Numbered from the stretch's first letter, positions 24,204-24,875 are shown. The stretch is DNA of 32,000 nucleotides from Devosia enhydra (GCF_900119845.1 NZ_FPKU01000003.1:64145-96144), one strand, 5' to 3'. The notes: generated by a model from the sequence alone, not told the origin. Numbers and translations are program-made.

Positions 24204-24428
24204 GCCCTCGTCCTTCGAGGCTTTGCTTTACGCAAAGCACCTCAGGATGAGGGCCGAAAGGCAGGTGCAGTAGATACTTTCTCTGAAACCCCTCAGAACC
24301 TCATGCTGAGGCTTCCAAGCGACCCGCAGGGTCCGGGCGCTCCTGTGGAGCGACCGAAGCGCAGGAAGGCCATGAGCGCTATGCGCGAATGGCTCGCCGC
24401 AGGGGCGTCTCGAAGCACGAGGTTCGGG
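24204..24428. repeat. composite repeat unit, copy 1 (family A palindrome, about 45-nt spacer, family B long form)
   Basis: A at 24204-24254, spacer 24255-24298, B at 24299-24428. Same order and orientation as 24731-24875. Confidence 0.85.
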
Positions 24429-24436
24429 CTCTTCGC

Positions 24437-24724
24437 TTACCGCTTTCTCCGGCTGGCCAATCGCGGCAAATCCTCCGACTGTCCCGCGATCAACGCCTCC
24501 TTCTTGGCGCGGCTCCAGCCTTTGAGCTGTCGCTCCCGCTCGAAGGCGACAATGAGGACATTGGTGACCTCTGAGTAAGCCAGCTCCACCGGCGGCCGAC
24601 TTTGTGTATACCCAGCGATCAGACCGCCATTATGCTCTGCAACGCGTTGCTCGATCGGCTTGCGGGTGTTACCCACATAATAGGAGCCGTCAGCGCAGCG
24701 CAGGATATAGACCACTATGTCCAC
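24437..24724 (-). CDS. small GIY-YIG nuclease-family protein (UPF0213/YhbQ-like)
   Basis: 95 aa from GTG 24724 (GAGGG 10 nt upstream). VVYILRC.DGSYYVGNT...RV.EHN...RERQLKGWSR.KK motifs. The ORF-track N-terminal extension is translated repeat DNA. Confidence 0.8.
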   Translation of the reverse strand: MDIVVYILRCADGSYYVGNTRKPIEQRVAEHNGGLIAGYTQSRPPVELAYSEVTNVLIVAFERERQLKGWSRAKKEALIAGQSEDLPRLASRRKR

Positions 24725-24730
24725 AGCACC

Positions 24731-24875
24731 GCCCTCGTCCTTCGAGGCTTTGCTTGCGCAAAGCACCTCAGGATGAGGGCCCGAGGGGCCAGTTGCAATA
24801 GATACCTTCCCTAAAATCCCTGAGAACCTCATGCTGAGGAGCGCCGAAGGCGCGTCTCGAAGCACGAGGTTCGGG
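24731..24875. repeat. composite repeat unit, copy 2 (family A palindrome, spacer, family B short form)
   Basis: The A arm differs from copy 1 by a single indel. The spacer is about three-quarters identical by eye. B lacks the internal insert of about 80 nt. Confidence 0.85.

Follow-up and report, generated by a model that had tools for sequence, protein, structure and literature searches.

A small GIY-YIG endonuclease gene of Devosia enhydra and the hairpin repeat that flanks it and its alphaproteobacterial relatives

Introduction

The genome of Devosia enhydra harbors a short gene for a GIY-YIG nuclease that fills the gap between two copies of a composite palindromic repeat, and this arrangement raises the question of whether nuclease and repeat are partners and, if so, in what kind of system. 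The locus was analyzed here within a 32,000-nt stretch of one contig (GCF_900119845.1, NZ_FPKU01000003.1:64145-96144), referred to as the window, with all positions counted from its first letter. A first-pass annotation had likened the locus to RAYT transposases and their REP elements, had suggested that the nuclease might cut the repeats flanking it, and had taken such an association to be undescribed. The idea was sound yet already published, since the same nuclease-repeat architecture was reported by Chenal et al. (2025, Nat Commun 16:2388; PMC11893778), who described the Ssn family, with SsnA of Neisseria meningitidis and the NTS/SRM repeats. SsnA is a 94-residue single-domain GIY-YIG protein (CDD cd10448) whose gene is flanked by NTS hairpins (CGTCATTCCCGCGMAVGCGGGAATCYRG); it binds the NTS hairpin solely when the DNA is single-stranded, cleaves immediately upstream of the hairpin and does not bind RNA (PMC11893778). 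The cutting by a nuclease of its own flanking repeats has therefore been established biochemically for a related GIY-YIG clade, and is not new. The same authors likened the NTS-ssnA-NTS arrangement to IS elements and to RAYT/REP, and listed Devosia among the genera with more than 300 SRM copies (PMC11893778). Our own literature searches pairing GIY-YIG with REP, REPIN, RAYT or MITE returned nothing relevant.

The analysis presented below leads us to assign a probability of roughly 65% to the reading that the window locus is an Ssn-type partnership between a small single-domain GIY-YIG endonuclease and a cognate hairpin repeat. This kind of system has been known since 2025; the hairpin family found here differs from the published one, the protein clade is divergent, and the putative activity is proposed by analogy with SsnA.

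Results

A single-domain GIY-YIG protein with a complete catalytic set

The nuclease gene lies on the minus strand at 24437-24724, with a GTG start and a TAA stop codon, and is the sole GIY-YIG ORF in the window. Its 95-residue product shows 100% identity with a Devosia enhydra protein annotated as 'putative endonuclease'. The GIY-YIG family (PF01541) matched residues 4-75 with an E-value of 1.2e-14 and a bit score of 54.7 (cut-off, 22.6), and searches of Pfam and NCBIfam returned no second match within the protein. The presence of GIY-YIG as its only domain rules out identity with the RAYT (HUH, IS200/IS605-type) proteins invoked in the first-pass annotation. Residues Y6, Y16, R27, H31 and E64 were invariant when the protein was aligned with its relatives, with NTS-type Ssn proteins and with UPF0213 structures, and the catalytic set of two tyrosines, an arginine, a histidine and a metal-binding glutamate is complete in the window protein. 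Comparison with the orthologue at locus L001, from a Devosia metagenome-assembled genome (MAG), yielded a dN/dS of 0.13, and the gene is under purifying selection. Two paralogues, with 80% and 68% identity (P0003 and P0013), are encoded in Devosia enhydra. A promoter scan of the GIY-YIG locus returned no match. In Caulobacter, three small COG2827 genes are on record, one of them with an SOS box (PMC1839093).

The gene is bracketed by two inverted hairpin doublets

Two same-orientation copies of a composite unit, at 24199-24428 and 24726-24875, lie on either side of the ORF. This direct repetition was confirmed by alignment (four segments, of 30, 28, 50 and 34 nt, with identities of 97%, 96%, 86% and 94%, respectively) and by blastn (87.5% identity across 112 nt and 94% across a further 34 nt), with control window pairs from 76 comparable loci usually reaching at most about 25-30 bits. 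The bracket had been placed correctly by the first-pass annotation, although the units start about 5 nt further left than it claimed, and its short distances to the gene hold: unit 1 ends 8 nt from the stop codon and unit 2 begins 1-6 nt away from the start codon, the GTG being preceded by GAGGG.

Each composite unit is made up of two inverted hairpin copies separated by a spacer of about 45 nt. Unit 1 begins right at the stop codon of the neighboring DUF2336 gene and comprises hairpin A1 (24204-24255, core 24211-24249, minus strand), a spacer (24256-24289) and the long-form hairpin B1 (24290-24428, core 24302-24417, plus strand), which is inverted relative to the nuclease gene, ends 19 nt downstream of its stop codon and carries an 83-nt structured insert (24312-24394) in its loop. 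It is this insert in the B hairpin that makes copy 1 longer than copy 2. Unit 2 comprises hairpin A2 (24731-24781, core 24738-24775, minus strand, located by motif scan), a spacer (24782-24811) and the short-form hairpin B2 (24812-24875, core 24830-24864, plus strand), an inverted A-type copy. On the strand of the gene, A2 has what we term the 'beta' form, CATCCTGAGG and CTCGAAGGA on either side of a GCTTTGC stem; its end is 13 nt short of the start codon, its outer flank provides the GAGGG, and in L001 a beta hairpin sits at the matching position, -13. The A and B palindromes had been described as two families, but B is A inverted, so that a single element in two orientations is present and the composite unit is an inverted doublet. 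The A parts, said to differ by a single indel, in fact differ by one indel and one or two substitutions.

Folded as single-stranded DNA, A1, the twin of A2, reaches -17 to -18 kcal/mol (z -4.4 to -5.7), B2 -18.9 to -20.1 kcal/mol (z about -6) and B1 -42 kcal/mol (z -4.0), and the whole doublet can fold as single-stranded DNA too. The composite-unit spacer (TAGATACNTTC...AGAACC) had zero matches in a metagenome scan, and the four composite doublets seen, in the window and in L001, all flank the nuclease gene.

The long B form is 97% identical to positions 21570-21693. The strongly structured 83-nt loop segment itself occurs at 24312-24394 and 21583-21665 of the window and at about 3215-3300 of L001, in copies that are 97% identical, and in the L001 MAG it sits on the opposite side of the nuclease gene. 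This segment may be a small element nested within the larger one.

Anatomy and distribution of the hairpin family in the window

On one strand, the hairpin reads CCTCA-xyz-TGAGG, an inner stem-loop, and CTCGAA-x'y'z'-TGAGG, with a core of CCTCA-xyz-TGAG...CGAA-x'y'z' in which the xyz and x'y'z' triplets pair with each other to form an imperfect hairpin. Because its TGAGG... and ...CTCGAA parts are conserved yet poorly paired, the hairpin has a direction. Two subtypes can be distinguished, a compact one (CTGAGCCTGTCGAAGG) and one with an inner stem. In 86-97% of the copies CCT precedes the CA, a position that the search pattern did not impose, and a common 5' GTCAT tag for NTS and A/B hairpins, considered at one point, was rejected on this count. 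Two Bradyrhizobium repeats, Br-REP1 and Br-REP2, were likewise discarded as representatives of the same repeat, their sequences being different. The 16-mers of the hairpin core did not occur in the literature searched, and an Rfam scan of the 13-26 kb region produced no credible family match; a mir-3158 hit at 15762-15852 merely reflects an NTS-like doublet.

The window contains eight hairpins of this family, four around the nuclease gene and four in two gene-less head-to-head pairs. The first of these pairs (21573-21756) consists of a long copy at 21573-21688 on the plus strand and a short copy at 21722-21756 on the minus strand, 33 nt apart; the second (15697-15919) consists of copies at 15697-15732 (plus) and 15882-15919 (minus), with an NTS-like doublet in between. 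Both pairs sit in intergenic islands of a gene transfer agent (GTA) cluster, in agreement with the first-pass annotation, which had placed further copies of the repeat there. The GTA cluster extends over about 6700-21500 and encodes a GTA_TIM tail protein, tail tube, capsid, prohead protease, portal and terminase. It is unusual in having islands of hairpins between its genes (at 13.6 kb and 15.7-15.9 kb) and also upstream of its 5' end (21.5-21.8 kb).

A second hairpin family in the window, GTC(A/G)T(T/C)CC(C/T)GCG-AAA-GC(A/G)GG(G/A)A, is close to the published NTS core. It is represented by inverted doublets at 13636-13711 and 15769-15845 and by a single copy at 21804-21825 (GTCATTCCCGCGAAAGCGGGAA), which would fit the strict SRM pattern but for its first position or the W of GTCWY. 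Two hairpin families thus coexist in the Devosia enhydra genome, and the NTS-like copies suggest that a canonical Ssn partner may be encoded elsewhere in it.

The hairpin-gene block is an insertion between two conserved neighbors

The block is flanked by a DUF2336 gene on its left (23053-24198, plus strand) and a DUF1491 gene on its right (24887-25216, minus strand), both assigned with Pfam, and synteny of the latter is retained in loci L001, L082, L083 and L084. In L001 the arrangement is the same as in the window, with a DUF2336 protein 99% identical and a nuclease 91% identical to their window counterparts, and with the long hairpin form as an extra copy on the other side. In the more distant Devosia loci L082 and L084, where the neighbor protein is 82% identical, the DUF2336-DUF1491 gap measures about 60 nt and holds neither a GIY-YIG gene nor a hairpin of the family, only an ordinary terminator-like hairpin. 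Given this empty gap between the same neighbors in related Devosia, the roughly 690-bp hairpin-gene block is an insertion in the D. enhydra lineage. The first-pass annotation had offered, as an alternative, that the gene plus one unit homes into existing units; this finds no support here, the empty sites carrying no unit. Orthologous units are 90-93% identical, as against 87-88% for the two units within one genome, and the duplication of the unit is therefore older than the split of the two lineages.

Related nucleases occupy other loci. The genome of L082 carries its own nuclease of the clade elsewhere (L085), between prfC and an aldo-keto reductase gene and bracketed by compact hairpins; a relative with 71% identity (L216) occupies a different locus again, with doublets on both sides and the inner stem GCTTTGC found in the window; and a further cassette lies between kbl and tdh (L041). 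One protein (P0097) was found on 21 contigs in essentially one context, with one variant neighbor, and hence shows no sign of recent transposition. With regard to insertion sequences and MITEs, inverted hairpins abut the ORF, as terminal inverted repeats would; no target-site duplication is visible at the compared sites, and no near-identical copies of the window protein were found among proteins on record.

The nuclease gene (24437-24724, compared with 3485-3772 of L001) has diverged faster than its neighbors between these two closely related genomes, with a dS of 0.35 versus 0.15-0.23, which could reflect exchange between paralogues or a local rise in mutation rate near hairpins.

The hairpin accompanies the nuclease across Alphaproteobacteria

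The association between gene and repeat was assessed in 81 loci, made up of 80 loci encoding relatives of the window protein (49-62% identity, mostly Alphaproteobacteria) and the orthologous Devosia locus L001. Hairpins were searched with a strict pattern, CA-xyz-TGAG followed by CGAA-x'y'z' at most 130 nt away, which identified 255 sites in the 81 loci versus 0-3 in shuffled sequences. Of the 81 loci, 71 (88%) had a hairpin no more than 400 nt from the gene and 41 (51%) had one on both sides within 150 nt, and most of the ten loci scored as negative have degenerate versions. Hairpin density fell from 3.21 per kb close to the gene to 0.114 per kb at a distance, and when only intergenic DNA was considered it was still tenfold higher beside the gene (5.28 versus 0.53 motifs per kb). 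Motifs on both sides were seen at 24/71 GIY-YIG genes versus 6/322 other genes (Fisher p about 1e-14). Independently of the pattern, the upstream and downstream flanks shared a repeat scoring at least 40 bits in 41/76 loci, compared with 7/884 control window pairs, and the flanking repeats of very different genomes, read by eye, have the same core as in Devosia.

The position and orientation of the hairpins also follow a rule. The nearest upstream hairpin lies on the strand of the gene in 43/53 loci, at a median of 23 nt from the start codon, and the nearest downstream hairpin is inverted in 39/58, at a median of 6 nt from the stop codon and at times overlapping it (orientation bias, p=6e-6). 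In the typical geometry, then, a hairpin on the strand of the gene precedes the start codon by about 10-35 nt, and another, inverted, lies at the stop codon or just past it. The nuclease-repeat association glimpsed at the window locus is thus real and general, as attested by the 71/81 loci, the tenfold intergenic enrichment and the orientation rule. Reading of the loci indicates that the hairpin family recurs in many Alphaproteobacteria and in a few MAGs of Betaproteobacteria and Chloroflexi, and it flanks most relatives of the protein across Alphaproteobacteria and a few other lineages.

Hairpin type, compact or with inner stem, was mapped on the protein tree, where 57 of 70 nearest neighbors shared the same type (42 +/- 4.6 expected); mean protein identity within types was about equal to that between types. 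Co-evolution of protein clade and hairpin type was consequently discarded as a line of evidence, the pattern amounting to local clustering explicable by host relatedness.

Several individual loci deserve mention. In L031, two nuclease genes of the clade (1460-1726 and 2050-2379) adjoin and point in opposite directions, and both are accompanied by hairpins of the family. In L090 (24-2685), an otherwise identical nuclease locus has as its upstream neighbor an OLD-TOPRIM ATPase with a UvrD-like helicase, resembling a Gabija-type pair, at the position that lepA occupies on other contigs. The compact hairpin GTCCTGAGC(C/T)TGTCGAAGGA lies beside relatives in Dehalococcoidia MAGs (L028, L048, L066, L068) and in Betaproteobacteria (L042, L075); either gene and hairpin travel together or some of these contigs are misbinned. 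Finally, the deposited 158-residue call for P0016 starts within the upstream hairpin (L085, 10001-10150) and has a spurious N-terminal extension ending in ...PLILSLSKDEGHPP. Translated hairpins, with ...LILSLSKDEG as an example of such an extension, probably contaminate many protein records.

Relationship to the Ssn family and to other known systems

The resemblance to the Ssn system extends from protein to locus. At 95 residues, the window protein falls within the size range of single-domain Ssn proteins (about 94-150 residues, SsnA-type about 95-105). In both systems a same-strand hairpin lies upstream of the gene, an inverted one downstream, and the same hairpin is dispersed in the genome, and a canonical NTS-flanked gene in L190 has the same geometry as the window locus. 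The SRM motif was reported around 71% of SsnA-homologue genes and on both sides in 42% of them (PMC11893778), as compared with the 88% and 51% obtained here for relatives of the window protein.

The two systems differ, however, in the sequence of the hairpin, which is CCTCA-xyz-TGAG...CGAA-x'y'z' in the window and CGTCATTCCCGCG-MAV-GCGGGAATC in NTS. The published SRM pattern, implemented as HGTCWYN(0-2)YYVSBRHN(0-5)WNVSBRGN(0-2)RNCYNB, had zero matches in the window, and neither it nor the NTS core was found near the gene in any of the 81 relatives. As a control, the same pattern recovered 209 sites in loci selected for NTS, including both flanks of canonical Ssn genes (L190, L132, L098). The proteins differ too. 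The window protein is 28-34% identical to NTS-flanked sphingomonad Ssn proteins, and a profile built from its clade gives 45-54 bits for the NTS clade and 60-64 bits for the UPF0213 structures 1ZG2 and 1YWL, whereas with a profile of the NTS clade these structures reach only 17-25 bits. On the basis of these profile scores and of the low identity to the NTS clade, the window clade is distinct and nearer to UPF0213, and any transfer of function from SsnA consequently crosses clades.

Among solved structures, the best matches of the window protein were indeed UPF0213/YhbQ proteins, 1ZG2 (BH0048, E=8.5e-9) and 1YWL (EF2693, E=1.2e-7), with 38% identity to this family, which equal it in size and catalytic residues and differ from it in having no described repeat partner or known function. 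SLX1 has a comparable nuclease domain and is a structure-specific nuclease acting with SLX4. The homing endonucleases I-TevI and Seg share the GIY-YIG domain and a gene inserted between conserved neighbors, but they have a separate DNA-binding domain and belong to phage genomes or introns, unlike the window protein, a bare catalytic domain under purifying selection in a bacterial chromosome. The likeness to RAYT (TnpA-REP), on which the first-pass annotation had drawn, holds at the level of architecture, with a single gene, vertically inherited instead of being a multi-copy IS, bracketed by genome-wide palindromic repeats (REP/REPIN/BIME) that form inverted doublets. It ends with the enzyme, RAYT being HUH/Y1 transposases with a covalent intermediate, as opposed to a hydrolytic GIY-YIG nuclease with no IS200/IS605 link.

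Discussion

The geometry of the window locus, its recurrence beside relatives and the conservation of the catalytic residues argue for a partnership of the Ssn type. By extension from the biochemistry of SsnA, the window protein would bind its hairpin in single-stranded DNA, with recognition possibly mediated by the conserved asymmetric TGAGG... / ...CTCGAA part that gives the hairpin its direction, and would then cut the hairpin strand near the hairpin. Its cellular targets would be dispersed hairpins at times when they become single-stranded, for example at replication forks, in the course of repair or in DNA entering the cell, and cleavage at these copies might modulate recombination around them. 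We also propose, more tentatively and at somewhat less than even odds, that small GIY-YIG nucleases include a second clade, to which the window protein would belong, separate from the published Ssn clade and closer to UPF0213, with the CCTCA-xyz-TGAG...CGAA-x'y'z' hairpin as its own partner.

Part of the evidence for this partnership could also be accounted for by a selfish cassette resembling an insertion sequence, an explanation that overlaps with it in part and that we regard as rather unlikely. The hairpin-gene-hairpin block would then move as a whole, a break made by the nuclease would start copying or homing, and the dispersed hairpins would be either gene-less derivatives, of a MITE- or REPIN-like nature, or landing sites. 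Such mobility would agree with the insertion of the block relative to L082 and L084, with cassettes that occupy unrelated loci of related lineages (L085, L216) and, in L041, separate kbl from tdh, with inverted hairpins that abut the ends of the ORF like terminal inverted repeats and sometimes contain its stop codon, with the gene-less head-to-head pairs about 30 nt apart in the window (21573-21756), and with the IS likeness noted by the Ssn authors (PMC11893778). An active selfish element, however, would be hard to reconcile with the lack of near-identical copies, given the 80% and 68% identity of the paralogues and the 61% shared by the two genes of a single MAG (L020, L062), or with the finding of the same protein nearly always in one genomic context and of a gene that two Devosia genomes have kept in place under purifying selection. 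There is no visible target-site duplication, the empty sites offer no pre-existing unit for homing, and a 95-residue hydrolytic nuclease has no strand-transfer chemistry by itself.

The hairpins could instead act in RNA, as terminators, mRNA stabilizers or a 5' leader of the nuclease, in the ordinary use of REP-like sequences at gene ends and with no recognition by the protein. We consider this improbable as the sole explanation, even though both gaps lie at gene 3' ends, T-rich runs flagged as terminator-like follow the A hairpins, the upstream hairpin keeps a fixed short distance from the start codon and REP elements are known to function in 3' UTRs of other bacteria (PMC5082802). Roles in RNA leave unexplained the tenfold enrichment beside one gene family over other intergenic regions, as well as the orientation rule and the conservation of unpaired, asymmetric bases across orders; no Rfam family was matched, and SsnA does not bind RNA (PMC11893778). 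They may nonetheless coexist with a nuclease-hairpin partnership. Mere co-location, through the accumulation of repeats and a small dispensable gene in permissive intergenic DNA, would be compatible with the same hairpins occurring in other intergenic islands of the window that have no nuclease gene, but it is excluded by the locus, density and orientation counts (41/76 loci versus 7/884 control pairs; an intergenic density of 5.28 versus 0.53 motifs per kb, with a Fisher p of about 1e-14; orientation bias, p=6e-6), and the same architecture is seen in a biochemically characterized sister system (PMC11893778).

With an Ssn-type partnership, the Devosia locus would join the newly described hairpin-directed single-stranded DNA nucleases, as would, by extension, most of the relatives of its protein. 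This class of nucleases would then not be confined to the NTS/SRM hairpin, another widespread hairpin family obeying the same gene-flanking rule, and a common, unnamed family of alphaproteobacterial intergenic repeats would have a candidate enzyme. If the proposal of a second clade is true, an orphan REP-like repeat family gains a candidate enzyme and single-strand-specific nucleases gain a new recognition class, with a possible new specificity of single-stranded DNA cleavage for use in tools. Recipients of GTA particles take up DNA through competence-like machinery. The presence of these hairpins and of NTS-like hairpins in the GTA cluster thus raises the question of whether the nuclease may influence the recombination of transferred DNA, in a manner comparable to that of SsnA in Neisseria transformation.
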